Source: an uncultured Actinomycetes bacterium (lineage in GTDB: Bacteria > Actinomycetota > Actinomycetes > S36-B12 > CAIYMF01). From it: a stretch of DNA of 32,000 nt. Of the stretch, positions 12,925 to 24,080 are shown one piece after another. The stretch is taken from the NCBI GenBank assembly GCA_963843975.1, contig CAWJMG010000003.1, forward strand, positions 1,110,001 to 1,142,000, given 5' to 3'. The notes below the pieces were generated by a model. That model was not told where the DNA came from. It did no database searches and saw only the letters and a list, made by a program, of their open reading frames with translations. Position numbers and translations under genes: made by a program. Within the stretch, counting starts at the first letter, position 1. Each line of letters begins with the position of its first letter.

Positions 12925-14313
12925 TCAGGCCGCGGCCGCCACCAGCGAGCCGCTGTACATGCCCATGACGCACGCGAAGTCGTAGCGCTCCCCGGCCGCG
13001 AGGGCGGGGAGCTCGACGACGTTGGCGCCGGTCCGCAGGTTGGCCTTCCACTCCCAGCTCACCCCGCGCAGGTACGCCGCGCAGCTGAGGTCGGACACCG
13101 AGGTGATCTCCCAGCGGATCGGCAGACCGGGCTTCACCACCGTGGTCTGCGGCACGTAGCCGCGGGTGGTCTGCTCCATCGTCACCGTCTGGGTCGTCGC
13201 GCCGACGCTGACGTTTCCGGTGATCGCCGTCGGCACCTCGGTGGCCCGCTGGGTCCAGCCGAGGAGCGCTGCGGCGCCGCCGGCGTTGACCAGGGCGAAC
13301 GCCACGAGCACGGCGCCGGTGATCGCGAGCACCTGCTGCCGCACCGCGGCCGAGCCGATCCGCGGGAGCCCCGCCACGGCGAGCAGGCCGGGCGCGGTGC
13401 CGATCGCGAACACCGCCATGGTGATCCCCGCGGTGAGCGCCGAGCCGGTGGTCATGGCGTAGAGCTGCATGGCCTGGGTGAAGCCGCAGGGCAGGAAGAA
13501 CGTCAGCGCTCCGAGGGCGGCCGTGCGGGCGTCGGAGTACGGCCCTGAGGAGCGCTGCTCGACGCCGAGCGCGCGGGCGAGCGACGGCGGCAGCGACGGC
13601 GACCACGCGGCGAGACGGGGAGACACCCGCAGCAGCCGGATGCCGAGCACGGCCATCACGAGCGCCACGGCGAGCGTCAGCACCGCCTGCGCCTTCTCCG
13701 GCAGGCCGATCTGGGCGCCGATCGCTCCGAGGGCGGCTCCCAGGAGGGCGAAGCCGACGATCCGGCCCGCATGGAACACCAGATGCGGCCGCAGCGATCC
13801 CGGGCGCGGCCGGCCGTCCTCGTACCCGACGGCCGCGGCGTGCGAGGCGGACACCGCGAGCACGAGACCGCCCACCAGGGCCATGCAGGTCGAGACGCCG
13901 GCCGCCAGGCCGACGAGCAGCACGACGAGCAGGCTCCCGGACGACGTCGAGGCAGAGCCCGAGAGCAGGTCGGGCAGGCCGAAGAAGGCGACGAGCACCG
14001 CGCCGACAGCCACGACGGCGGCTGCCACGAGCGCCTCGCGCCACACCGTGACGTCCGGGCTCACCCACGGCTCACGGCCCACGCGGTAGCCGGCCCCGGC
14101 GACGGCAGCTTCGACGGACCGGTCCAGCACGGGACGGTCGACGTCGTCCGCGACGATCAGTGAGGCCTCGCCGCGGCGCACCGAGACGACGGCGGACTCC
14201 ACGCCCGGCACCTTCGTCAGCGCCTTGGACACCCGGGTCTCGCACGCGCGGCAGGTCATGCCGGCGACGGGGACACGCACCTCGTGCATCCCGGTCGTCG
14301 TCGGTCGTGCCAT
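12925..14313 (-). CDS. Three-domain metal-handling membrane protein with an N-terminal HMA domain, a TauE/DsbD_2-like polytopic core and a C-terminal cupredoxin-like domain
   Basis: ATG at 14313 sits 7 nt after GGAGG. It has the GMTCRACETRV metal-binding motif, about 6 TM helices with FFLPCGFTQAM, and a C-terminal FACVMGMYSG. Confidence 0.7.
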   Translation of the reverse strand: MARPTTTGMHEVRVPVAGMTCRACETRVSKALTKVPGVESAVVSVRRGEASLIVADDVDRPVLDRSVEAAVAGAGYRVGREPWVSPDVTVWREALVAAAVVAVGAVLVAFFGLPDLLSGSASTSSGSLLVVLLVGLAAGVSTCMALVGGLVLAVSASHAAAVGYEDGRPRPGSLRPHLVFHAGRIVGFALLGAALGAIGAQIGLPEKAQAVLTLAVALVMAVLGIRLLRVSPRLAAWSPSLPPSLARALGVEQRSSGPYSDARTAALGALTFFLPCGFTQAMQLYAMTTGSALTAGITMAVFAIGTAPGLLAVAGLPRIGSAAVRQQVLAITGAVLVAFALVNAGGAAALLGWTQRATEVPTAITGNVSVGATTQTVTMEQTTRGYVPQTTVVKPGLPIRWEITSVSDLSCAAYLRGVSWEWKANLRTGANVVELPALAAGERYDFACVMGMYSGSLVAAAA

Positions 14314-14489
14314 GCCGTCACCTCCGCCAGCGCTGATCGTCACGGTCATCATCGGCGTCCCGGGCAGCGAACGCGAGAGATCCCGCTGCGAGCGGCCGGT
14401 GTCGTCCGACACGCCCGGCGGGGCACCCACCTGGGGCGATGCGACGACCTTTGACTCCGGGCACCGGCGCGTGGTCAGGTACAGGGGCC

Positions 14490-14630
14490 CCCTACCGTGG
14501 GGGTCACAACTGAACACCCGCGCCTGACGTCCAGGGGAAGCCGGTCCGAATCCGGCGCTGAACCCGCAACCGTAGGTGGTCGACCCGTTGAGGACGGGAA
14601 CGACTGCGAGCCGGAGCACCTGGCGGGCGC
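14490..14630 (+). promoter_or_regulatory. Cobalamin (B12) riboswitch aptamer. The 5' boundary is approximate.
   Basis: The conserved core AGGGGAAGCCGGTCCGAATCCGGCGCTGAACCCGCAACCGTAGG lies at 14533-14576. The B12 box GAGCCGGAGCACCTGGC lies at 14608-14624. The element sits in a roughly 490-bp gene-free region upstream of a corrinoid salvage operon. Confidence 0.8.
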
Positions 14631-14697
14631 GAGATCGGCTCACATCCGTCGAGGTCTACGGAACGAGCCCGGACCGTCCCCCTGGTCCGACCTCTCG

Positions 14698-14741
14698 CCC
14701 CTCGCGCCCGGTCCTCACGGACCACGGCTCGAGGGGTTTTT
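14698..14741 (+). terminator. Riboswitch expression platform: an intrinsic terminator (attenuator)
   Basis: The outer stem cccctcg (14698-14704) pairs with cgagggg (14730-14736), and an inner stem ggtcc/ggacc closes a tcac loop. It is followed by TTTTT (14737-14741). The left arm 14701-14710 (ctcgcgcccg) is perfectly complementary to 14624-14633 (cgggcgcgag) at the 3' edge of the B12 box, giving an antiterminator option. Confidence 0.65.
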
Positions 14742-14801
14742 CGTCGTACGGGGAGCAGTCCGGACCACTTGGTTCGTGCCCGCTCCACCGAAAGGACCCC
14801 C

Positions 14802-16190
14802 GTGGTCACCGTCCCCTCCGGGCGCCCGCCCGCTGCTCGTCGTGCCATCGCCGGCCTCCTGGCCGCCACCGCGCTCCTGGCCTCCGCCGCGCTCGCCGCG
14901 CCGTCGGCCTCGGCCGCCACCGCCCCCGTGCAGGTCGGCCTGTTCGGCACGCAGGACCCGACGTACGACGGCGTCTTCCGCCAGTCGCTGGCCCTGCTCG
15001 CCTTCGCGGCCGCCGACCAGGCGCCGCCCGAGGAGTCGGTCGCCTGGCTGCTCGACCAGCAGTGCGCGGACGGCGGCTTCCAGGCGTTCCGCGAGGACAC
15101 GACCAAGCCGTGCACGAAGTCCGACCCCGCGAACTTCGTCGGCGAGGACTCGAACTCCACGGCGCTGGCGTCCGCGGCGCTCACGGTGCTGGGCGAGCTC
15201 GACGCCGCCGACGGCGCTCTCGCCTGGCTCGAGGGTGCGCAGAACTCCGACGGCGGCTTCCCCTACTTCCTCGGCGGCACGTCCGACGTGAACTCCACTG
15301 CCATCGCGCTGATGGCGACCAACGCCGTCGGGCTGGCCCCCACCCAGGTGACCTCCGGCGGCGTCTCGGCCGCCGACTACCTCGTCGGCCTGCAGGTCGG
15401 CTGTCCGGGCGTGCCCACGAACGAGGACGGCGGATTCGCCTACGCCGACTTCTCCGCCGGCACCGCGAACGACGCGGCCACGGTGCAGGCGGCGCTCGCC
15501 ATCACCGGAGCTGCGCTCCCGTTCGTCGCGGACGCCCCGTCGCTCGACATCCCCCGCGTGGACTGCCCCGCACCGACCGTGACGCCCACCGCGCCCGCGG
15601 TCGCCGGTGCCGCCGCTCCGGCGGCGGCGCTGCCCGTGACCCCGGCCGAGCTGGCGGGCGGCTACATCGCGCGCACGCTCGAGACCTACGGCAACGCCAT
15701 CCCCCAGCTCGACTTCACCACGGGAGAGCGCAAGCCCGGCACCGTCTCGGCCGGCGACACCGCGTGGGCCGTGCTCGCCCTGTCGGCGATCGGAGTCGGC
15801 GGCACCCAGCGCGACGCCGCCCTCGACGTGCTGCTCGCCGAGGTCGGTACCGCCCCGGCGGCCAAGACCGCCGCGAAGGCCGTCTCGGACGAGGCGCCCG
15901 GGCTGCTCTCGCTCGCCGCGCTCGCGGTCGTGTCGGCCGACGGCAAGCCGGCGACCGCGGCCGACCTCGTCGCGAGGGTCGGCGCGACGATGCGCACGGC
16001 TCCCGCCTCGGTGACGCCGACACCGACGCCCACGACCGGCACGCCGACCCCGTCCGGCACGAGCGACGGCGGCCTCGCGCCCTCGGGCGCCTCGCCGCTC
16101 ACGCCCGGCCTCGCAGGTGCCGGTGCGCTCCTGCTCCTCCTCGGGTCCGTGGCGCTCGGGCTGACCCGCCGCCAGGGCAGCCACTCGTGA
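14802..16190 (+). CDS. Cell-surface prenyltransferase/squalene-cyclase-repeat (alpha/alpha toroid) protein with a C-terminal sorting-type anchor (462 aa)
   Basis: GTG at 14802 sits 5 nt after AAAGGA. The signal peptide contains RR (AARRAIAGLLAATALLASAALAAPSASA). It has three Q/N-xx-DGGF repeats (QQCADGGFQAF, AQNSDGGFPYF, TNEDGGFAYADF) and a T/P linker. The C-terminus is LAPSG plus a hydrophobic stretch plus RRQGSHS. Confidence 0.75.
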   Translation: MVTVPSGRPPAARRAIAGLLAATALLASAALAAPSASAATAPVQVGLFGTQDPTYDGVFRQSLALLAFAAADQAPPEESVAWLLDQQCADGGFQAFREDTTKPCTKSDPANFVGEDSNSTALASAALTVLGELDAADGALAWLEGAQNSDGGFPYFLGGTSDVNSTAIALMATNAVGLAPTQVTSGGVSAADYLVGLQVGCPGVPTNEDGGFAYADFSAGTANDAATVQAALAITGAALPFVADAPSLDIPRVDCPAPTVTPTAPAVAGAAAPAAALPVTPAELAGGYIARTLETYGNAIPQLDFTTGERKPGTVSAGDTAWAVLALSAIGVGGTQRDAALDVLLAEVGTAPAAKTAAKAVSDEAPGLLSLAALAVVSADGKPATAADLVARVGATMRTAPASVTPTPTPTTGTPTPSGTSDGGLAPSGASPLTPGLAGAGALLLLLGSVALGLTRRQGSHS

Positions 16191-17125
16191 CCGACGCACG
16201 CCGGGGGACGGCGGCCGCACGTGCGGCCGCCGTCCTCGGCGTGCTCGGGTCCGTCCTCGTCGCGTTGCTCGTCGCGGCCCCGGCCGCCGAGGCCGCGTCG
16301 TACCGCTACTGGACCTACTGGTGGGGGCAGCCCGCCGCCACCTCCTGGACCTTCGCCCAGCTCGGCCCCGCGAGCGACCGCCCGAAGGACGGCGCGGTGC
16401 TCGGCTGGAGGTTCGCCGTCACGACCGAGGCGGGCGGCAAGAAGTCGCCGCGCGCGTCGCTGCCGTTCGACTCCCTCTGCCCGTCGCTCGCCGGGACACC
16501 TGCCGGCGCGGGCGAGAAGCGCGTCGCGGTCGTCGTCGACTACGGCACGGCGTCCGACGCTCCCCCGGGCGAGGCGCCTCCGGGCGGAGGCACCGTGCGC
16601 GTCGAGTGCGTGACGGTCGCCGCCAACGCCACCGGCGTCGCCCTCCTCAACGCGGCCGGCGTCTCGCTGCGGTTCGGCGACAACGGGCTCGTGTGCGGGA
16701 TCGACCGCTATCCGCGCACCGAGTGCGCGGCGGTCGTGGCCGACCCGACGCCGTCCCCGAAACCCACCACGGCCGCCCCCAAGCCCCAGCCCAGCACCGC
16801 CCGACCGACCGCGTCGGCGACCGGTGGCGGCAGCGTCGCCAGCAGCGCGGCGGCGGGAACGGCCTCAGCCGGTGAGCAGTCGTCGTCGGCCGCGACCACC
16901 GGGAGCAGCAGCGCCGTCCCCGAGGCGACGACGGCGTCGCCTGCGCCCTCGACGTCGGTCGACCCGACGACCGAGGTGCCGCTCCCGGTCAGCTCCGGGG
17001 CCCCCGTGGCCTCGGGCACCGAGGGCGGTTCCGGCGGCAGCCCCATGGCGCCGGTCGTCGGGGTCGCGCTCGTCGCCGCCGTCGGCATCGGAGCCTGGTG
17101 GACAGCGCGCGGGAGGCGGGCATGA
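16187..17125 (+). CDS. Stalked, membrane-anchored extracytoplasmic protein (312 aa), reminiscent of the SCO2322-type family that accompanies such ECF operons
   Basis: The GTG at 16187 overlaps the upstream stop (GTGA). It has a signal peptide ending AAEA|AS and a roughly 150-aa domain (YRYWTYWWGQ, DGAVLGWRF, GLVCGIDRYP, 4 Cys). A roughly 100-aa S/T/P/A stalk follows, then a C-terminal TM plus RGRRA. Confidence 0.7.
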   Translation: MTDARRGTAAARAAAVLGVLGSVLVALLVAAPAAEAASYRYWTYWWGQPAATSWTFAQLGPASDRPKDGAVLGWRFAVTTEAGGKKSPRASLPFDSLCPSLAGTPAGAGEKRVAVVVDYGTASDAPPGEAPPGGGTVRVECVTVAANATGVALLNAAGVSLRFGDNGLVCGIDRYPRTECAAVVADPTPSPKPTTAAPKPQPSTARPTASATGGGSVASSAAAGTASAGEQSSSAATTGSSSAVPEATTASPAPSTSVDPTTEVPLPVSSGAPVASGTEGGSGGSPMAPVVGVALVAAVGIGAWWTARGRRA

Positions 17126-18279
17126 GCCGCACCGCGCACGCCCTCGGCAGCCGCGCGCTCCCGCGCTGGACCCACCCCGTCGCCTGGTGGGTCTGGGCCC
17201 TCGGGCTCGCCACCGCCGTCAGCCGCACCACCAACCCGCTGCTGCTCGCACTGATCGTCGCGGTGGCCGGCTGGGTCGTGGCCCGTCGTCGCCCCGACGC
17301 GCCCTGGGCCAGGTCGTACGCGGTCTTCCTCCGGCTCGGCCTCGTGGTGATCGCGATCCGCGTGGCGTTCGCGGTGGTGCTCGGCTCGGGCGCCGGTACG
17401 ACCGTGCTCCTGCAGCTGCCCGAGATCCCGCTCCCCGACTGGTTCGCCGGCGTGAGCCTCGGCGGCCCGGTCACCCTCGAGGAGCTGCTCGCCGCCGTCT
17501 ACCAGGGCATGGTGCTCGCCGCGCTGCTCGCCTGCGTCGGCGCTGCGAACTCGCTGGCGAGCCCCGCCCGGCTACTCGCGTCGGTGCCGGCCGCGCTCTA
17601 CGAGGTGGGCGTCGCCGTCGTCGTCGCCATGACCTTCGCCCCGCAGCTCGTTCAGGACGTCGGCCGCGTGCGCACGGCTCGGCGCCTGCGCGGTCGGCCG
17701 GACCGCGGCGCCCGCGCGCTCGCGGGGTCGGTGCTGCCGGTGCTCGAGGGTGCGCTCGAGCGGGCGGTGGACCTCGCCGCGGCGATGGACTCGCGCGGCT
17801 ACGGCCGTACGGGCGCTCAGTCGCCCGCCCTGCGACGTACGTCGGCCGCACTCCTGCTGCTGGGCCTGCTCGGCATGTGCCTCGGCGTCTACGCGCTGCT
17901 CGACACGGGCACGGCCGGTGCTCTCGGCCTGCCGCTGCTCGTGCTCGGCGTGGCCGCCGGGACGATCGGCGTGCTGCTCGCGGGCCGGCGCTCGATCCGC
18001 ACGCGCTACCGCCCCGACCCGTTCGCGCTGCCCGAGTGGATCGTCGCGGGCACCGGGGTGCTCGTCGCCGTCGTCGTGGTCGCCGTCTCGATCACCGACC
18101 CCGCCGTCCTCGTCGGCCCGGTGGCGCCGCCGGCCTGGCCGGCCCTCCCCCTGCTGCCGGTCGCAGCGATCCTGCTCGCCGCCCTGCCGGGTCTCGTCAC
18201 GCCCCCGCCCCCCGGCATGATGACCGTCCAGCCCGTCCCGGCTCGTCGGGACCGCGAGCCCGAGGGGGTGGCCGCGTGA
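17122..18279 (+). CDS. ECF transporter transmembrane (T) component, CbiQ/EcfT family, with an extra C-terminal TM region (385 aa)
   Basis: The ATG at 17122 overlaps the upstream stop (ATGA), with GGGAGG upstream. The coupling-helix Arg-Gly motifs RTARRLRG and AMDSRGYG are present. There are about 3 additional TM helices after residue 270. Confidence 0.8.
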   Translation: MSRTAHALGSRALPRWTHPVAWWVWALGLATAVSRTTNPLLLALIVAVAGWVVARRRPDAPWARSYAVFLRLGLVVIAIRVAFAVVLGSGAGTTVLLQLPEIPLPDWFAGVSLGGPVTLEELLAAVYQGMVLAALLACVGAANSLASPARLLASVPAALYEVGVAVVVAMTFAPQLVQDVGRVRTARRLRGRPDRGARALAGSVLPVLEGALERAVDLAAAMDSRGYGRTGAQSPALRRTSAALLLLGLLGMCLGVYALLDTGTAGALGLPLLVLGVAAGTIGVLLAGRRSIRTRYRPDPFALPEWIVAGTGVLVAVVVVAVSITDPAVLVGPVAPPAWPALPLLPVAAILLAALPGLVTPPPPGMMTVQPVPARRDREPEGVAA

Positions 18280-19907
18280 TCCGCTTCGACGACGTCACCG
18301 TCACCTACGACGGCTCCCCCGCACCGGTGCTGAGCCACGTCGACCTCCACATTCCCGAGGGCGAGCTCGTCCTCGTCGTCGGTCGCACGGGCACCGGCAA
18401 GTCGACGCTCCTGCGCTGCGTCAACGGCCTGGTGCCGCACTTCACCGGCGGCACCCTGCGCGGCCGCGTCACCGTGGCCGGCCGCGACACGCGCACGCAC
18501 CCGCCCCGCGAGCTCGCCGACGTCGTGGGCGTCGTGCCGCAGGACCCGCTCAGCGGCTTCGTCACCGACATCGTCGAGGACGAGCTCGCCTACGGCATGG
18601 AGTCGATCGGCCTCGCACCGGACGTCATGCGTCGCCGGGTCGAGGAGACGCTCGACCTGCTCGGCCTCAACGACCTGCGCAACCGCGCGCTGCGCTCGCT
18701 GTCCGGCGGGCAGCGCCAGCGGGTGGCGATCGGCGCCGTCCTCACCACGCACCCGAAGGTGCTCGTGCTCGACGAGCCCACATCGGCCCTCGATCCCGGT
18801 GCGGCAGAAGAGGTCCTGGCCGCGCTGCAGCGGCTCGTGCACGATCTCGGCGTCACCGTGCTGCTCGCCGAGCACCGGCTCGAGCGGGTCGTGCAGTACG
18901 CCGACCGCGTCATCGTCGTCCCCGGCGGAGGCGAGCCCCTCGTCGTCGGCACGCCCGCCGAGGTGATGGTGACGGCTCCCGTCGCTCCCCCGGTGGTGGA
19001 GCTCGGGCGCCTCGCCGGGTGGTCGCCGCTGCCGCTGTCCGTGCGCGACGCCCGCCGCGCCGCCGGTCCTTTGCGCGAGCGGCTGCAGCCGCTCGTCGAG
19101 GACGCCGTCCTGCGCTCGCGCTCCTCGCTGCACGTCCTGTCCGGCACGCCGGCGGTATCCGCGCTCGACGTCGTCGTGCGCCACGGCTCGGTGGCCGCGC
19201 TCCGCGGTGTCACGGTGGCCGCGGACAAGGGCGAGATCGTCGCCGTCATGGGGCGCAACGGCGCCGGCAAGTCGACGCTGCTCTCGACCTTCGTCGGCCT
19301 CCACTCCCCCGCCGCCGGGTCGGCGACCGTGGGCGGTGCGACCTCCGCGGCCCTGCGCGGTCGAGAGCTCGTGACACGCGTGGGACTGGTGCCGCAGGAG
19401 CCCACCGACGTGCTGGTGGCCGACCGGGTGGGCGACGAGTGCGCGGCCGCCGACCGCGACTCCGGCGTCGCGCCCGGCACGGCCCGCGCGATCCTCGACC
19501 GGGTCGCACCGGGCGTGGACGACGACACGCACCCGCGCGACCTCAGCGAGGGGCAGCGCCTCGCCCTCGCCCTCGCCGTCGTCCTCGCCGCCCACCCGCC
19601 CGTGCTGCTGCTCGACGAGCCGACGCGCGGCCTGGACTACGCCGCGAAGCGGCGGCTCGTCGCCGTCCTGCGCGAGCTGGCTGCCGACGGGCACTGCGTG
19701 ATCCTCGCGACGCACGACGTCGAGCTCGCGGCAGAGGTGGCGACGCGCGTCGTCGTCCTCGCGGAGGGCGAGGTCGTCGCGGACGGCCCGGCCACCGAGG
19801 TCGTCGTGGGGTCGCCGATGTTCGCCCCGCAGGTGAGCAAGGTGCTCGCACCGCAGCCCTGGCTCACGGTGGCAGAGGTCGCCGCCGCACTGGTAGCGGC
19901 GTCGTGA
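18276..19907 (+). CDS. ECF transporter ATPase, a fused tandem A-A' protein (543 aa)
   Basis: The GTG at 18276 overlaps the upstream stop (GTGA). The first ABC cassette has GRTGTGKST / LSGGQRQRV / VLVLDEPTSALD. The second has GRNGAGKST / LSEGQRLAL / VLLLDEPTRGLD. Confidence 0.9.
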   Translation: MIRFDDVTVTYDGSPAPVLSHVDLHIPEGELVLVVGRTGTGKSTLLRCVNGLVPHFTGGTLRGRVTVAGRDTRTHPPRELADVVGVVPQDPLSGFVTDIVEDELAYGMESIGLAPDVMRRRVEETLDLLGLNDLRNRALRSLSGGQRQRVAIGAVLTTHPKVLVLDEPTSALDPGAAEEVLAALQRLVHDLGVTVLLAEHRLERVVQYADRVIVVPGGGEPLVVGTPAEVMVTAPVAPPVVELGRLAGWSPLPLSVRDARRAAGPLRERLQPLVEDAVLRSRSSLHVLSGTPAVSALDVVVRHGSVAALRGVTVAADKGEIVAVMGRNGAGKSTLLSTFVGLHSPAAGSATVGGATSAALRGRELVTRVGLVPQEPTDVLVADRVGDECAAADRDSGVAPGTARAILDRVAPGVDDDTHPRDLSEGQRLALALAVVLAAHPPVLLLDEPTRGLDYAAKRRLVAVLRELAADGHCVILATHDVELAAEVATRVVVLAEGEVVADGPATEVVVGSPMFAPQVSKVLAPQPWLTVAEVAAALVAAS

Positions 19908-20776
19908 CCGCCACCGCGCTGCCGCCGGCAGCGAACGGCACGGTCGACGTCTACGTCGTCCGCTCGGGGCGCCCCAGCGCCGTGCGCGTCGGCCGCCGCT
20001 CGCTCGTCGCGATGATCCTCGCGAGCGCCGTCGGCCTGCTCGCCTTCGCCTGGCCGCTCATGGCCCCCGCGGGGTCGGCGATCGTGGCGCACGCGGCCGA
20101 TGCCCCGTGGCTGTTCGCGGCGATGCTGCCGCTGGTCCTCGCCGTCGTCCTGGCCGAGGTGGCCGACGGCGGGCTCGACGCCAAGGGCGTCGCCCTGCTC
20201 GGCGTGCTCTCCGCCGTCGCGGCAGCCCTGCGGCCGTTCGGCAGCGGGCACGCGGGGTTCGAGCCCATGTGGATCGTGCTGGTGCTCGGTGGCCGCGCGC
20301 TCGGCCCCGGCTTCGGCTTCTGCCTCGGCTCGGTCGGCATGTTCGCCTCGGCCATGGTCACCGGCGGCGTGGGCCCGTGGCTGCCGTTCCAGATGGTCGG
20401 CGCCGCGTGGGTCGGCGTGGGTGCCGGCCTGCTTCCGCGCGCGACCGGCCGACGCGAGCTCGGACTGCTCGCCGGCTATGCGGCCTTCGCCTCGCTCGCC
20501 TACGGATTCCTGCTCAACCTGTGGTTCTGGCCGTTCATCACGGCCGACCAGGGCTTCGCCCCCGGCCTGTCGTACGTTCCCGGCGCACCGGTGCTCGAGA
20601 ACCTGCAGCACTGGATCCTGTTCAGCCTCGCCACCTCGCTCGGCTACGACATCCCGCGCGCCGTGCTCACCGTGGTGCTCGTGCTCGTCGCGGGGCGGCC
20701 GGTGCTCACCGCGCTGCGGCGAGCGTCGAGACGGGCCGCGTTCGAGGTGCCGGTTCGGTTCGAGGACGCCCGCTGA
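19904..20776 (+). CDS. ECF transporter substrate-capture (S) component, unusually large (290 aa). The substrate is inferred to be a corrinoid.
   Basis: The GTG at 19904 overlaps the upstream stop (GTGA). The protein is polytopic and Gly/Ala/Leu-rich with about 7-8 hydrophobic segments. It lacks the CbiM-type MHIxEG N-terminus. Its position completes a dedicated T-A-S set. Confidence 0.65.
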   Translation: MTATALPPAANGTVDVYVVRSGRPSAVRVGRRSLVAMILASAVGLLAFAWPLMAPAGSAIVAHAADAPWLFAAMLPLVLAVVLAEVADGGLDAKGVALLGVLSAVAAALRPFGSGHAGFEPMWIVLVLGGRALGPGFGFCLGSVGMFASAMVTGGVGPWLPFQMVGAAWVGVGAGLLPRATGRRELGLLAGYAAFASLAYGFLLNLWFWPFITADQGFAPGLSYVPGAPVLENLQHWILFSLATSLGYDIPRAVLTVVLVLVAGRPVLTALRRASRRAAFEVPVRFEDAR

Positions 20777-22188
20777 TGCAGGTGCTGATGCTCGGCACCG
20801 GCGCGGCCGACGGATGGCCGAACCCCTTCTGCACGTGCGCCTCCTGCGACTGGGCACGATCGACGGGCACCGTCCGCACCACGACCTCCGCGCTCGTCGA
20901 CGACGCACTGCTGCTCGACTGCGGACCCGACGCACCGCGCCAGGCCTCCCGCGCCGGGCGCAGCCTCGAGCAGCTGCGCGCGGTGCTCGTGACGCACGCG
21001 CACCCCGACCACCTCGATCCGTCCGCACTGCTCGCGCGCTCGTGGGCGCGACCGGCGTCGGCGCTGCAGGTCGTCGGCCCGCGCTCGGTCATGGCCGCGT
21101 GCGAGCACTGGATCGGTCCGGACGACTCCGTGGCGCTCACCGAGGTGTCGCCCGGCGACGTCCTCACGATCGACGGGTACGTCGTGCGCGTGCTCGCGGC
21201 CGCGCACGACGTCGGCCACGACCCCCTGACGGCCGACGCGGTGCTGTACGACGTCACCGCGCCCGACGGTGCGCGCCTGCTCTACGCGACCGACACCGGG
21301 CCGCTCCCGCAGGAGACCGTGGACGTGCTGCACGGCGCGGCGCTCGACCTGCTGCTCGTCGAGGAGACGTTCGGCGCCCAGGCCGACCACGGCACGGGCC
21401 ACCTCGACCTCGCGACCCTGCCGCGCGAGCTGGCTCGGCTGCGCGAGTGCGGTGCGCTCACCGGCACGACCGACGTCGTCGCCGTCCACCTGAGCCACCA
21501 CAACCCGCCGGGCCCCGAGCTCGCGCGCGTGCTGGCGCCCTGGGGAGTCCGTGTGGTCGACGACCTCGCCGAGCTGCGGGTCGGGCCGTCGGAGTCGGTG
21601 TCGCGCCCCACGACGCCGCGACGGACGCTGCTGCTGGGAGGCGCACGCTCGGGCAAGTCGCACGAGGCCGAGCGGATGCTCGCGGCCACCGCCGATGTCG
21701 AGTACGTCGCCACCGGCGGCGCCCGCGACGGCGACGCGGAGTGGGCCGAGCGCGTCGCCCTGCACCGCGCCCGTCGACCGGCCACGTGGTCGACCGTCGA
21801 GACGCTGGACGTCGCGAAGCTGCTGCAGTCGCCCGGCCCGTCGGCGGTGCTCGTCGACTGCCTCTCCCTGTGGCTCGCGGGCGTGCTCGACTCCGCCGGC
21901 ATGTGGGAGCACGCCGCAGGCTCCCCGGGCCGAGGCGAGGCGCTGTCACATGTCGACGTCGAGGTCGCTGCCCTGGTCGACGCCGTCCGGCGCACGTCGC
22001 GCACGGTCGTGCTGGTCTCCAACGAGGTCGGTAGCGGCGTCGTGCCGGAGCACGAGTCGGGCCGGCTCTACCGCGACCTGCTCGGCCGCCTCAACGCCCG
22101 CGTCGCCGCCGAGTGCGACGCTGTGTCCCTCGTCGTCGCAGGCACCGTCCTGCCCCTCACGCCCGGAAGCAGCGCAGCAGCACCGTGA
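20776..22188 (+). CDS. cobU: Fusion of a PhnP-like metallo-beta-lactamase-fold phosphodiesterase domain with adenosylcobinamide kinase / adenosylcobinamide-phosphate guanylyltransferase (CobU/CobP), 470 aa
   Basis: The N-terminal domain has LGTGAADGWPNPFCTCASCDWAR (the Cys cluster seen in E. coli PhnP), VLVTHAHPDHLD (HxHxDH), YATDTG, GHLDL and AVHLSHH. The C-terminal domain has LLLGGARSGKSHEAE (P-loop), LVDCLSLWL and VSNEVGSGVVPEHESGRLYRDLLGRLN. Confidence 0.8.
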   Translation: MQVLMLGTGAADGWPNPFCTCASCDWARSTGTVRTTTSALVDDALLLDCGPDAPRQASRAGRSLEQLRAVLVTHAHPDHLDPSALLARSWARPASALQVVGPRSVMAACEHWIGPDDSVALTEVSPGDVLTIDGYVVRVLAAAHDVGHDPLTADAVLYDVTAPDGARLLYATDTGPLPQETVDVLHGAALDLLLVEETFGAQADHGTGHLDLATLPRELARLRECGALTGTTDVVAVHLSHHNPPGPELARVLAPWGVRVVDDLAELRVGPSESVSRPTTPRRTLLLGGARSGKSHEAERMLAATADVEYVATGGARDGDAEWAERVALHRARRPATWSTVETLDVAKLLQSPGPSAVLVDCLSLWLAGVLDSAGMWEHAAGSPGRGEALSHVDVEVAALVDAVRRTSRTVVLVSNEVGSGVVPEHESGRLYRDLLGRLNARVAAECDAVSLVVAGTVLPLTPGSSAAAP

Positions 22189-23271
22189 CCCTCGACCTCG
22201 ACGCCCTCGTCGCCCGCATCGAGCTGCCGGACGACGACGCCCGCGCCGCGGCAGCGGAGCGGCAGACGCGGCTCACCAAGCCGACCGGGGCGCTCGGGCG
22301 GCTCGAGGAGCCTCTCCCTGTGGCTGTGCGCGGTGCAGGGCGTGTGCCCGCCGCGGCCGCTCGAGCGCGTGCGCGTGATCGTCCTGGCCGGCGACCACGG
22401 CGTCGCCCGCACTGCCGCCACGAGCGCGTACCCGCCCGAGGTCACCGCGCAGATGGTGCTCAACTTCCTCGCCGGCGGCGCCGCCGTGAACGTGCTCGCG
22501 CGGCAGAACGGCGCGACCGTCCGCGTCGTCGACGTCGCGGTCGACGTCGACTGGGCCGAGCTCGGCGCGACGGTGCCCGAGGACGTCGTGCGCGACAAGG
22601 TACGGCGCGGCAGCGGCTCGATCGACCGCGAGGACGCGATGACGCGCGAGGAGACGGAGGCGGCGTTCGCGCTCGGCGTCCGCATCGCCGACGAGGAGGT
22701 CGATGCCGGCGCCGACCTCCTCATCCCCGGCGACATGGGCATCGGCAACACGACGCCAGCCGCCGTCATCACCGGGCTGTACACGAACCAGGACGCCGCG
22801 TCCGTCGTCGGGCGCGGCACCGGGATCGACGACGCGACGTGGATGCGCAAGACCGCGGCGGTCCGCGACGCGATGCGTCGCGGCCGCGACGCCAAGGGCG
22901 ACCCGATCGCCCTGCTGGCGACCGTCGGCGGCGCCGACATCGCCGCCATGACCGGCCTGCTCATCGGCGCAGCCGCCCGGCGGACACCCGTGCTGCTCGA
23001 CGGCGTCGTGTCGTGCGCAGCCGCGCTGGTGGCGCAGCGGATGTCGTTCCGCGCGCGGGAGTGGTGGCTCGCCGGCCACCTGTCGACCGAGCCGTCCGCG
23101 AAGGCCGCGCTCGAGCGCCTGCGGCTCGACCCGCTCGTCGACTACGGCCTGCGCCTCGGTGAGGGCACCGGCGCCCTGATCGCGCTGCCGGTCCTGGCCG
23201 CCGCCGGCGCGACGCTCCGCGAGATGGCGACCTTCGACGAGGCCGGCGTCTCGGACAGGGAGCAGCCCTGA
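22185..23271 (+). pseudogene. cobT: Nicotinate-nucleotide--dimethylbenzimidazole phosphoribosyltransferase CobT. The frame is disrupted by one extra base at about 22311 as sequenced.
   Basis: The GTG at 22185 overlaps the cobU stop (GTGA). The first frame gives [42 protein letters not shown]. The next frame continues [16 protein letters not shown]...VLAGDHGV...GDMGIGNTT...LRLGEGTGA to the stop at 23271. The repaired length is 361 aa, as for Rv2207. Confidence 0.85.
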
Positions 23272-24080
23272 TGCCCGACTTCGTGCGCCTCGCGCTCGGC
23301 ACGTTCACGATCCTGCCGGTGCCGCCGCCGCGCACAGTGGACCGCACGACGGCGCGACGGGCGATGCTCCTCGCGCCGTTCGTCGGAGCCCTGCTCGCGA
23401 TGGTCGCCGCCGGCGTCATCCTGTTCGTCCGGCTCTCGCCGCTCGGCCACCGCACGCACATCGTCGTGACGCTCGTGGCCGCCACGCTCGCGATCGTCAC
23501 GCTCGCGGTCCTCACCCGCGGCCTCCACCTCGACGGCCTCGCGGACACCGCCGACGCGCTCGGGGTGAAGGGCGACGACGACGGCGCGCGGGAGCGCCGG
23601 CTCGCGGTGATGCGCACCCCGGAGATCGGGGCGTTCGGCGCCGTCACGCTGATCCTGGTGCTGATCGTCCAGATCCTCGCCCTCACCGCGTGCGACCTCG
23701 CCGGCCGCGGCACGGTCAGCCTGGTCACGGCCTGCGTGGTCGGCCGCCTCGCGGTGGTGTGGGCCTGCACCCGGCTCGCGCCGTCCGCCCGGCCCGACGG
23801 CCTCGGGGCCACGGTCGCCGGCACCGTGCCGGTGGTGGCCGCCGCGCTGCTCACCGTCGCCGCCGGGCTGCTCGCGGTGTGGCTCGGCCTCGGCGACGAC
23901 GACGGCGGCCGCCGGCTCGCTGCCGCGCTCGTGATCGCGACGATCGGCGGCCTCGCGGTCGGCGCCCTGGTCGTGCTCCGCGCCGTACGCCGGTTCGGCG
24001 GCATCACCGGCGACGTCCTCGGCGCCACGGTCGAGCTCACCTTCACCGCCGTCCTGCTGGCGCTCGCCCTGCTCCCCTGA
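23271..24080 (+). CDS. cobS: Adenosylcobinamide-GDP ribazoletransferase (cobalamin synthase) CobS
   Basis: The ATG overlaps the cobT stop (TGATG). It is a polytopic protein with the LHLDGLADTADAL motif. Confidence 0.85.
   Translation: MPDFVRLALGTFTILPVPPPRTVDRTTARRAMLLAPFVGALLAMVAAGVILFVRLSPLGHRTHIVVTLVAATLAIVTLAVLTRGLHLDGLADTADALGVKGDDDGARERRLAVMRTPEIGAFGAVTLILVLIVQILALTACDLAGRGTVSLVTACVVGRLAVVWACTRLAPSARPDGLGATVAGTVPVVAAALLTVAAGLLAVWLGLGDDDGGRRLAAALVIATIGGLAVGALVVLRAVRRFGGITGDVLGATVELTFTAVLLALALLP

Follow-up and report, generated by a model that had tools for sequence, protein, structure and literature searches.

How Gram-positive bacteria collect corrinoids ahead of membrane transport is poorly understood, and we know of no Gram-positive surface B12 binder that has been demonstrated biochemically. 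In Bacteroides, the surface proteins BtuG and BtuH, whose genes are under B12 riboswitches, bind corrinoids and supply them to a transporter in the membrane. Here we describe an operon of an uncultured Actinomycetes bacterium (contig CAWJMG010000003.1), found in a stretch of 32,000 nucleotides that was analysed as a whole and is referred to below as the window. In this operon a cobalamin riboswitch is followed by genes for two predicted surface proteins, A and B, and by the genes of an energy-coupling factor (ECF) importer. We propose, at a probability of roughly 0.6, that this is a B12-repressed corrinoid-scavenging operon, and that A and B correspond in Actinobacteria to the surface proteins of Firmicutes in which an alpha/alpha toroid is combined with a DUF4430/SLBB domain. 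BtuG and BtuH resemble A and B in the idea of surface capture, but their folds are unrelated (BtuG is a beta-propeller), they are anchored as outer-membrane lipoproteins, and their partner BtuB is TonB-dependent.

The closest described systems are those of the Firmicutes. Burroughs, Balaji, Iyer and Aravind reported in 2007 that relatives of the transcobalamin-like beta-grasp domain from low-GC Gram-positives are secreted or wall-anchored (PMC1796856). Frequently, these Firmicute surface proteins are joined to an alpha/alpha toroid and have genes that lie beside CbiO and CbiQ genes, in hosts without B12 synthesis. The authors predicted that the toroid/beta-grasp (DUF4430) proteins probably scavenge B12 or its precursors, and that the transcobalamin of animals was probably acquired from such bacteria (PMC1796856). 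Their listing of the clade covers low-GC Gram-positives, planctomycetes and some euryarchaea; Actinobacteria are not listed (PMC1796856). In addition, a 2019 preprint on Lactobacillus sakei described a split alpha/beta pair, Lsa1839/Lsa1840, which lies next to an ECF transporter, was modelled as a heterodimer and was deleted (bioRxiv 10.1101/864751). A preliminary description of the window, made from the DNA letters, had proposed a Gram-positive capture device, with no experimental account of this role known for either family. In view of these two studies its novelty was overstated: the concept is a rediscovery of the 2007 prediction, in a phylum and with a partner domain that lie outside that prediction. 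A literature search on SCO2321-SCO2325 found no description of either actinobacterial family.

The leader and the first two genes of the operon are arranged in the window as follows.

14508-14641, plus strand: cobalamin riboswitch aptamer (35.0 bits in Rfam RF00174, whose gathering score is 31.5)
14697-14742, plus strand: terminator-like hairpin with U5, putative expression platform (RNA folding)
14802-16190, plus strand: gene A, SCO2321-like surface protein with a predicted toroid, 462 amino acids (NCBIfam, AlphaFold2, Foldseek)
16187-17125, plus strand: gene B, SCO2322-family (PF28005) protein with an ectodomain modelled as beta-rich, 312 amino acids (NCBIfam, Pfam, AlphaFold2)

The features that had been pointed out beforehand, namely the riboswitch, the signal peptides, the DGGF repeats, the LAPSG tail, the stalks and the gene overlaps, are all present. 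Between the aptamer and gene A, the first gene of the operon, a strong hairpin occupies 14697-14737, with UUUUU next to it at 14738-14742. Its folding energy was -40.2 kcal/mol (z = -4.7), and 0 of 200 shuffled sequences were as stable. A simple terminator consensus scan missed this hairpin because the loop limit of the scan is too short. The hairpin is likely the terminator of a transcriptional off-switch, in which the B12-bound riboswitch would stop transcription.

Gene A starts with GTG, with GAAAGGA 5' of it, and its signal peptide includes ARRAIAGLL. Three DGGF motifs are present, at residues 90, 150 and 209, and a short Thr/Pro stalk or linker leads to a C-terminal part consisting of TPTPTPTTGTPTPSG...LAPSG, a hydrophobic stretch and the tail RRQGSHS. 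The NCBIfam model SCO2321_fam (NF053823, an equivalog) matched A with 195.9 bits (E = 1e-57) over profile positions 3-357 of 405; A is under the equivalog cutoff of 300 bits, yet is a clear homologue. The AlphaFold2 model, calculated from an alignment of 100 sequences, had a predicted local distance difference test score (pLDDT) of 92.6, a predicted template modelling score (pTM) of 0.91 and 12 helices, and in this model A is a complete alpha6/alpha6 toroid. A toroid had been expected from the repeats, and a second helical region had been noted after them. The toroid is borne out, and the additional helices are present, but the 12-helix model indicates that they are the other half of the same toroid and not a separate region. 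The Foldseek matches of the model, with E = 2.5e-7 and weaker, are terpene cyclases, beta subunits of prenyltransferases and the TED domains of complement; the structural and profile matches include drimenyl diphosphate synthase, squalene-hopene cyclase and RabGGTase beta. Sequence searches of A against the PDB recovered only the squalene-hopene cyclase repeat region, and this with a profile, while the Pfam scores of A were all under the gathering cutoffs. Neither A nor any of the 99 family members checked has the DxDD cyclase motif (D.DD). A role of A as a cyclase or prenyltransferase was thus rejected, on account of the missing motif, the predicted extracellular location and the low Pfam scores. 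Since A in addition has four conserved cysteines and a toroid that is complete in the model, we read it as a binding toroid rather than an enzyme.

Concerning the attachment of A, the NCBIfam model strep_LAETG scored 20.1 bits against a cutoff of 30. Among 100 A-family C-termini, 69 carry L[APS]x[TS]G with a hydrophobic stretch and a basic tail. The pentapeptides (LPPTG in 13, LPDTG in 8, LAQSG in 8 and LAPSG in 6, among others) form a continuum of LPxTG, LAxTG and LAxSG, and Pfam Gram_pos_anchor matches 15 of the 100 members. From these sequence features A is probably attached to the cell wall by sortase. No match to A was found by tblastn against plasmids. An A-like toroid of 382 amino acids was also observed at another locus (L082, 6001-8332), where it is followed by a 392-amino-acid protein without a Pfam match and where neither an ECF gene nor B is present; A-type toroids therefore pair with other partners too.

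In the product of gene B, a signal peptide precedes a domain of some 150 amino acids with four conserved cysteines; then come a stalk of 96 residues (82% Ser/Thr/Pro/Ala/Gly), a transmembrane segment and the end ARGRRA. The surface display suggested beforehand for both proteins is in agreement with the sequence features that A and B carry. The NCBIfam model SCO2322_fam (NF040672) matched B with 146.7 bits, above its cutoff of 85, over profile positions 1-143 of 144, and PF28005 is annotated on 41 of 41 B homologues. The AlphaFold2 model of the domain (pLDDT 93.1, pTM 0.89) is beta-rich. It has an N-terminal hairpin, after which residues 74-148 form a strand, a short helix (96-99), a strand, a helix and three strands. 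If the short helix is disregarded, residues 74-148 follow the beta-grasp order in this model, with the hairpin lying separately at the N terminus. We propose that the domain is stabilised by disulfides and that the long stalk carrying it is flexible and anchored in the membrane. In one relative of 431 amino acids (P0295), the B domain is fused C-terminally to an unrelated domain of some 280 residues, and the two are not separated by a signal peptide; by eye only, this N-terminal domain resembles a serine hydrolase or beta-lactamase. The open reading frame after B in another locus (L034, 6762-7625) likewise seems, by eye only, to encode a domain of this kind.

The conservation of the arrangement was examined with a B-profile scan in which each species was represented by one genome. 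The scan identified at least 441 relatives, and 80 loci were retained, in which gene order was judged by tblastn. Nearly all of these 80 loci, which belong to other species, have the order A-B-T-AA-S (T, transmembrane component; AA, fused ATPases; S, substrate-binding component). It was found in Streptomyces, Kitasatospora, Nanopelagicales, Nocardioidaceae, Intrasporangiaceae, Micrococcales and bins that carry the label Bifidobacteriaceae. Many A and B homologues come from Nanopelagicales. At the Rfam gathering score a riboswitch was called in 7 of 12 loci, and the close relative L002 was missed. Because this score is too strict for GC-rich leaders, we built a covariance model of our own from eight leaders, each of which has a cobalamin-clan match above the Rfam gathering score. 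The model matched the plus strand directly upstream of A, or of B where there is no A, in 74 of the 80 loci, 73 of them at E <= 0.001 and one (L022) at E = 0.033. Four other loci are cut off upstream, so that the leader is present in 74 of the 76 loci that have upstream sequence; no leader element was found in L030 and L063, even with the speed filters of the covariance search turned off. Depending on the lineage, different Rfam clan models match the same operon: RF01482 in L017 and L032, RF01689 in L034 and L081, and RF00174 in the window and others. Concerning the genes after B, T, A-A and S are present in all loci with enough downstream sequence save four (L005, L011, L034 and L046), in which riboswitch, A and B stand without downstream ECF genes. 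Conversely, riboswitch-B-T-AA-S without A was found in six of the 80 loci (L018, L019, L033, L044, L062 and L064). The linkage of the pair to riboswitch and ECF genes, which had been put forward as a check across Actinomycetota, is thus conserved. The loci that lack A or the ECF genes lead us to consider B the core partner of the transporter and A dispensable, and A-B a pair that can also form a separate module.

We then compared these loci with 80 Firmicute metagenome loci whose DUF4430 genes were collected by a motif scan (GWMYxVNG). Pfam DUF4430 matches 23 of 23 sampled Firmicute domains and also the verified human transcobalamin beta domain. In the Firmicute loci DUF4430 often lies directly ahead of T-AA-S; a toroid is fused to it in seven loci and adjacent in another seven. 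The single polypeptides combining toroid and DUF4430 occur in L084, L087, L091, L112, L118, L144 and L158, in some cases directly upstream of ECF T and A-A, and the adjacent toroid proteins of L098 and L138 have C-terminal repeats resembling SLH wall-binding domains. The Firmicute toroids share the weak Pfam signature of A (SQHop_cyclase / Prenyltrans / TED), and hhalign aligned them to the A family with 96.9% probability (E = 1.5e-10); by this profile comparison they are homologues of A. In the actinobacterial loci B takes the place that DUF4430 has in the Firmicute loci, and each of the two is seen together with a toroid, in the absence of a toroid, and in front of ECF genes. As in the actinobacterial operon, the Firmicute proteins are secreted or anchored, one or more accessory proteins are followed by T, A-A and S, and CbiQ-like and CbiO-like genes share the operon with a gene encoding a signal peptide or surface anchor. 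The two modules differ in the small partner, which is DUF4430 in one and the SCO2322 domain (PF28005) in the other, and in the occurrence of genuine toroid-DUF4430 fusions, as opposed to no genuine A-B fusion found. They also differ in riboswitch linkage, which is near universal for A-B and sparse in the Firmicute sample. The eukaryotic carriers transcobalamin, intrinsic factor and haptocorrin likewise combine an alpha6/alpha6 toroid with a small beta-rich domain, and the riboswitch suggests that A-B would share their ligand class, but each of them is one soluble polypeptide whereas A and B are two anchored proteins.

The preliminary description had drawn the parallel to transcobalamin and had regarded B as a candidate relative of its beta domain. 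The parallel holds in the architecture, with DUF4430 in the place of B and toroids homologous to A, but B is not a detectable DUF4430 relative. Pfam DUF4430 (PF14478) matched none of 42 B-family members at E <= 10. PDB sequence and profile searches with B gave no match, and a homologue search from the transcobalamin beta domain returned mammalian fragments only. Foldseek of B against the PDB gave no match at E <= 0.001, the sole geometrically sensible row being 3u7z_A (E = 5.7, root-mean-square deviation 2.8, 68 columns). 3u7z was considered as a candidate DUF4430 structure, but it was not recovered by the verified DUF4430 profile even at E <= 10, and was not used. On the other hand, the N-terminal hairpin of B (YRYWTYWWG...GPASDRPKDGAVLGWRFAV) resembles the C-terminal strands of the transcobalamin beta domain (FWQLL...GIADYRPKDGETIELRLV), and the C-terminal half of B resembles the N-terminal strand-helix-hairpin part of that domain. 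When the B profile was circularly permuted, hhalign aligned it collinearly over 73-79 columns, namely with transcobalamin beta over 79 columns (score 24.1, P = 0.0013, reached by 0 of 150 column shuffles) and with DUF4430 over about 75 columns (score 18.2-18.6, P ~0.01, reached by 1 of 150 shuffles). In native order the alignment covered 20-23 columns against the transcobalamin and DUF4430-plus-transcobalamin profiles, and 39 against DUF4430 alone. The hhalign probabilities of the permuted profile stay at 3-19%, and Pfam DUF4430 misses 9 of 9 circularly permuted B sequences while detecting the transcobalamin beta control at E = 1.4e-6. We take a circularly permuted relationship of B to DUF4430 and transcobalamin beta as a lead suggested by these alignments and not as a result. 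It is conceivable, if somewhat doubtful, that B is either a circularly permuted transcobalamin-type SLBB beta-grasp or a wholly new corrinoid-binding fold, and that B, with or without A, is the main surface corrinoid capture of the Actinomycetota.

In a stricter version of the parallel, A and B would be an obligate heterodimer holding one corrinoid between the toroid and the beta domain of B, the latter homologous to DUF4430. The pairing of a toroid with a small beta-rich domain from translationally coupled genes, the natural toroid-DUF4430 fusions in Firmicutes, the collinear permuted alignments and the likeness of GPASDRPKDGAVLGWRFAV to GIADYRPKDGETIELRLV would all suit such a split transcobalamin. 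The low hhalign probabilities, the failure of Pfam DUF4430 on native and permuted B alike, and the lack of a significant Foldseek match for B speak against the homology. Furthermore, the six loci with B but no A and the four with A-B but no ECF genes contradict an obligate two-polypeptide clamp, as had been proposed from the sequence. A clamp of this kind is therefore not required and becomes less likely. The sole apparent A-B fusion (P0321) was considered as a natural fusion and rejected: it keeps the B signal peptide, and its junction looks like a frameshift read-through. We regard the obligate heterodimer as unlikely.

The remaining genes of the operon follow B on the same strand.

17122-18279, plus strand: ECF T component of the CbiQ family (Pfam CbiQ at residues 22-229 of 385), with a C-terminal extension of ~155 residues
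18276-19907, plus strand: fused double ECF ATPase, A-A' (two Pfam ABC_tran domains; near NCBIfam ECF_ATPase_1 and ECF_ATPase_2)
19904-20776, plus strand: ECF S component (Pfam ECF_trnsprt at residues 96-262)
20776-22188, plus strand: metallo-beta-lactamase (MBL)-fold domain fused to CobU, cobinamide kinase / guanylyltransferase (Pfam Lactamase_B_2 and CobU)
22185-23271, plus strand: cobT, 5,6-dimethylbenzimidazole (DMB) phosphoribosyltransferase, frame interrupted (Pfam DBI_PRT in the 22333-23271 frame)
23271-24080, plus strand: cobS, cobalamin-5'-phosphate synthase (Pfam CobS, E = 1.5e-44)

The complete order is thus riboswitch, hairpin, A, B, T, A-A, S, MBL-CobU, cobT and cobS. With T (CbiQ), ATPase and S (ECF_trnsprt) encoded in one operon, the importer belongs to the Group I, or dedicated, ECF transporters. 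Stop and start codons overlap between A and B (GTGA, 16187-16190) and between B and T (ATGA, 17122-17125), which confirms the translational coupling of A and B to T, A-A and S noted beforehand. Further overlaps are found at 18276-18279 (GTGA), 19904-19907 (GTGA), 20774-20778 (TGATG) and 22185-22188 (GTGA). As the overlaps continue from T-AA-S into MBL-CobU, cobT and cobS, the unit couples import to enzymes of nucleotide-loop assembly (cobinamide salvage). MBL-CobU or CobT follows S in other lineages as well, the MBL-CobU fusion being observed after S in L001, L002, L008, L018, L028, L032, L050, L052 and L072. ECF-CbrT of Lactobacillus delbrueckii, an importer of cobalamin and cobinamide, likewise consists of T, two ATPase domains and S (PMC5997447); a term search of the text of that paper finds no extracytoplasmic accessory proteins. 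In the window the ECF module differs from ECF-CbrT in being dedicated, in its fused ATPases and in its extended T, and S matched no PDB chain by sequence in a search that tested kinship with CbrT.

Several smaller features of these genes were observed. The extension of T past the CbiQ domain holds further hydrophobic segments, and S carries about 95 residues ahead of its ECF_trnsprt domain. In cobT, the region 22185-22340 is split over two frames by an extra C near 22309 (GAGGAG-C-CTCTCC), as seen in an alignment with L001, a Nanopelagicales metagenome-assembled genome, and L002, Longivirga aurantiaca; the extra C stems from an error in sequencing or else is a genuine frameshift. Upstream of the riboswitch, a divergent gene on the minus strand (12925-14330) has a product in which a heavy-metal-associated (HMA) domain is joined to a membrane domain of the DsbD_2 type. 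Its listed open reading frame extends into the riboswitch region, and the real start therefore lies further in.

A number of observations weigh against a corrinoid-scavenging role for A and B. ECF S components normally bind their substrate very tightly and need no extracytoplasmic partner. Pfam Cobalamin_bind (PF01122), an expected match of A if it were a close relative of the eukaryotic carriers, matches just 2 of 100 A-family members with a best E of 0.18 and does not match A itself, whereas human transcobalamin, used as a control, scored 394 bits. Neither was the human alpha domain linked to A by sequence, hhalign giving a probability of 0.2% against the A family, and transcobalamin was not among the top 50 Foldseek matches of A. 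For B, neither DUF4430 nor transcobalamin nor any fold in the PDB gave a significant similarity. The literature search gave no binding or genetic data for the actinobacterial A or B families. RF00174 was detected in only 2 of 13 Firmicute DUF4430-ECF loci tested (L096 and L152), from which it also follows that the link to B12 is much tighter in the actinobacterial version. The L. sakei pair, the only experimentally studied Firmicute analogue, was tied to the uptake of haem and not of B12 (bioRxiv 10.1101/864751). Lastly, Streptomyces that make B12 also have the operon, which therefore leaves room for cobalt or another precursor as the substrate.

Such an importer, for cobalt or for a lower-ligand precursor (DMB or alpha-ribazole) that A and B would concentrate, would agree with a T of the CbiQ family, with cobT downstream and with the operon in B12-producing Streptomyces, and cobalt transporters are also found under B12 riboswitches (PMC3766115). 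However, S matches the generic vitamin-type ECF_trnsprt in Pfam, CbiM not being among its matches, and the large toroid cavity and the transcobalamin-like parallel in Firmicutes suit a ligand of tetrapyrrole size. Moreover, the acI lineage has no B12 synthesis and yet keeps the ECF module behind cobalamin riboswitches (PMC5301498), a setting in which cobalt alone would be of little use. We consider this substrate quite improbable. A and B could also be co-transcribed envelope proteins without a role in substrate capture, acting in wall binding, in the protection or assembly of the ECF complex, or in haem capture as in L. sakei, whose operon is tied to haem. A also resembles the toroids of complement TED and alpha-2-macroglobulin, which do not bind vitamins, and an A-like toroid occurs outside the operon context in L082. 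With control by a B12 riboswitch being near universal, stand-alone A-B loci included, and with a gene order kept over many actinobacterial lineages, we hold this last explanation to be highly improbable.

We therefore return to the scavenging operon as the preferred reading. When B12 is plentiful, the riboswitch and the terminator hairpin would halt transcription, and under B12 shortage the cell would make its dedicated ECF importer (T, fused A-A' and S) along with CobU, CobT and CobS. A, probably anchored in the wall, and stalked, membrane-tethered B, possibly in contact with each other, would capture corrinoids within the wall or beyond it and hand them over to S, with B as the core partner of the transporter and A as an optional enhancer. 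CobU, CobT and CobS would then convert imported cobinamide-type corrinoids to cobalamin.

The surprise in such a device is limited, as the idea was already known. With 2170 clusters at 50% identity (E <= 0.001), the B family is a large one, and its members are in nearly every case linked to a B12 riboswitch and an ECF importer. Should B prove to be a permuted beta-grasp or a new corrinoid-binding fold, it would represent the main surface capture device of the Actinomycetota, including the B12-auxotrophic acI/Nanopelagicales that dominate freshwater bacterioplankton, and a second phylum of Gram-positives would join the transcobalamin lineage. As B is found both in Streptomyces and in Nanopelagicales, the order of the B12-auxotrophic freshwater acI bacteria, a positive binding result would matter for the ecology of B12 cross-feeding; it would also provide a second, sequence-divergent example for the evolution of transcobalamin-like capture.

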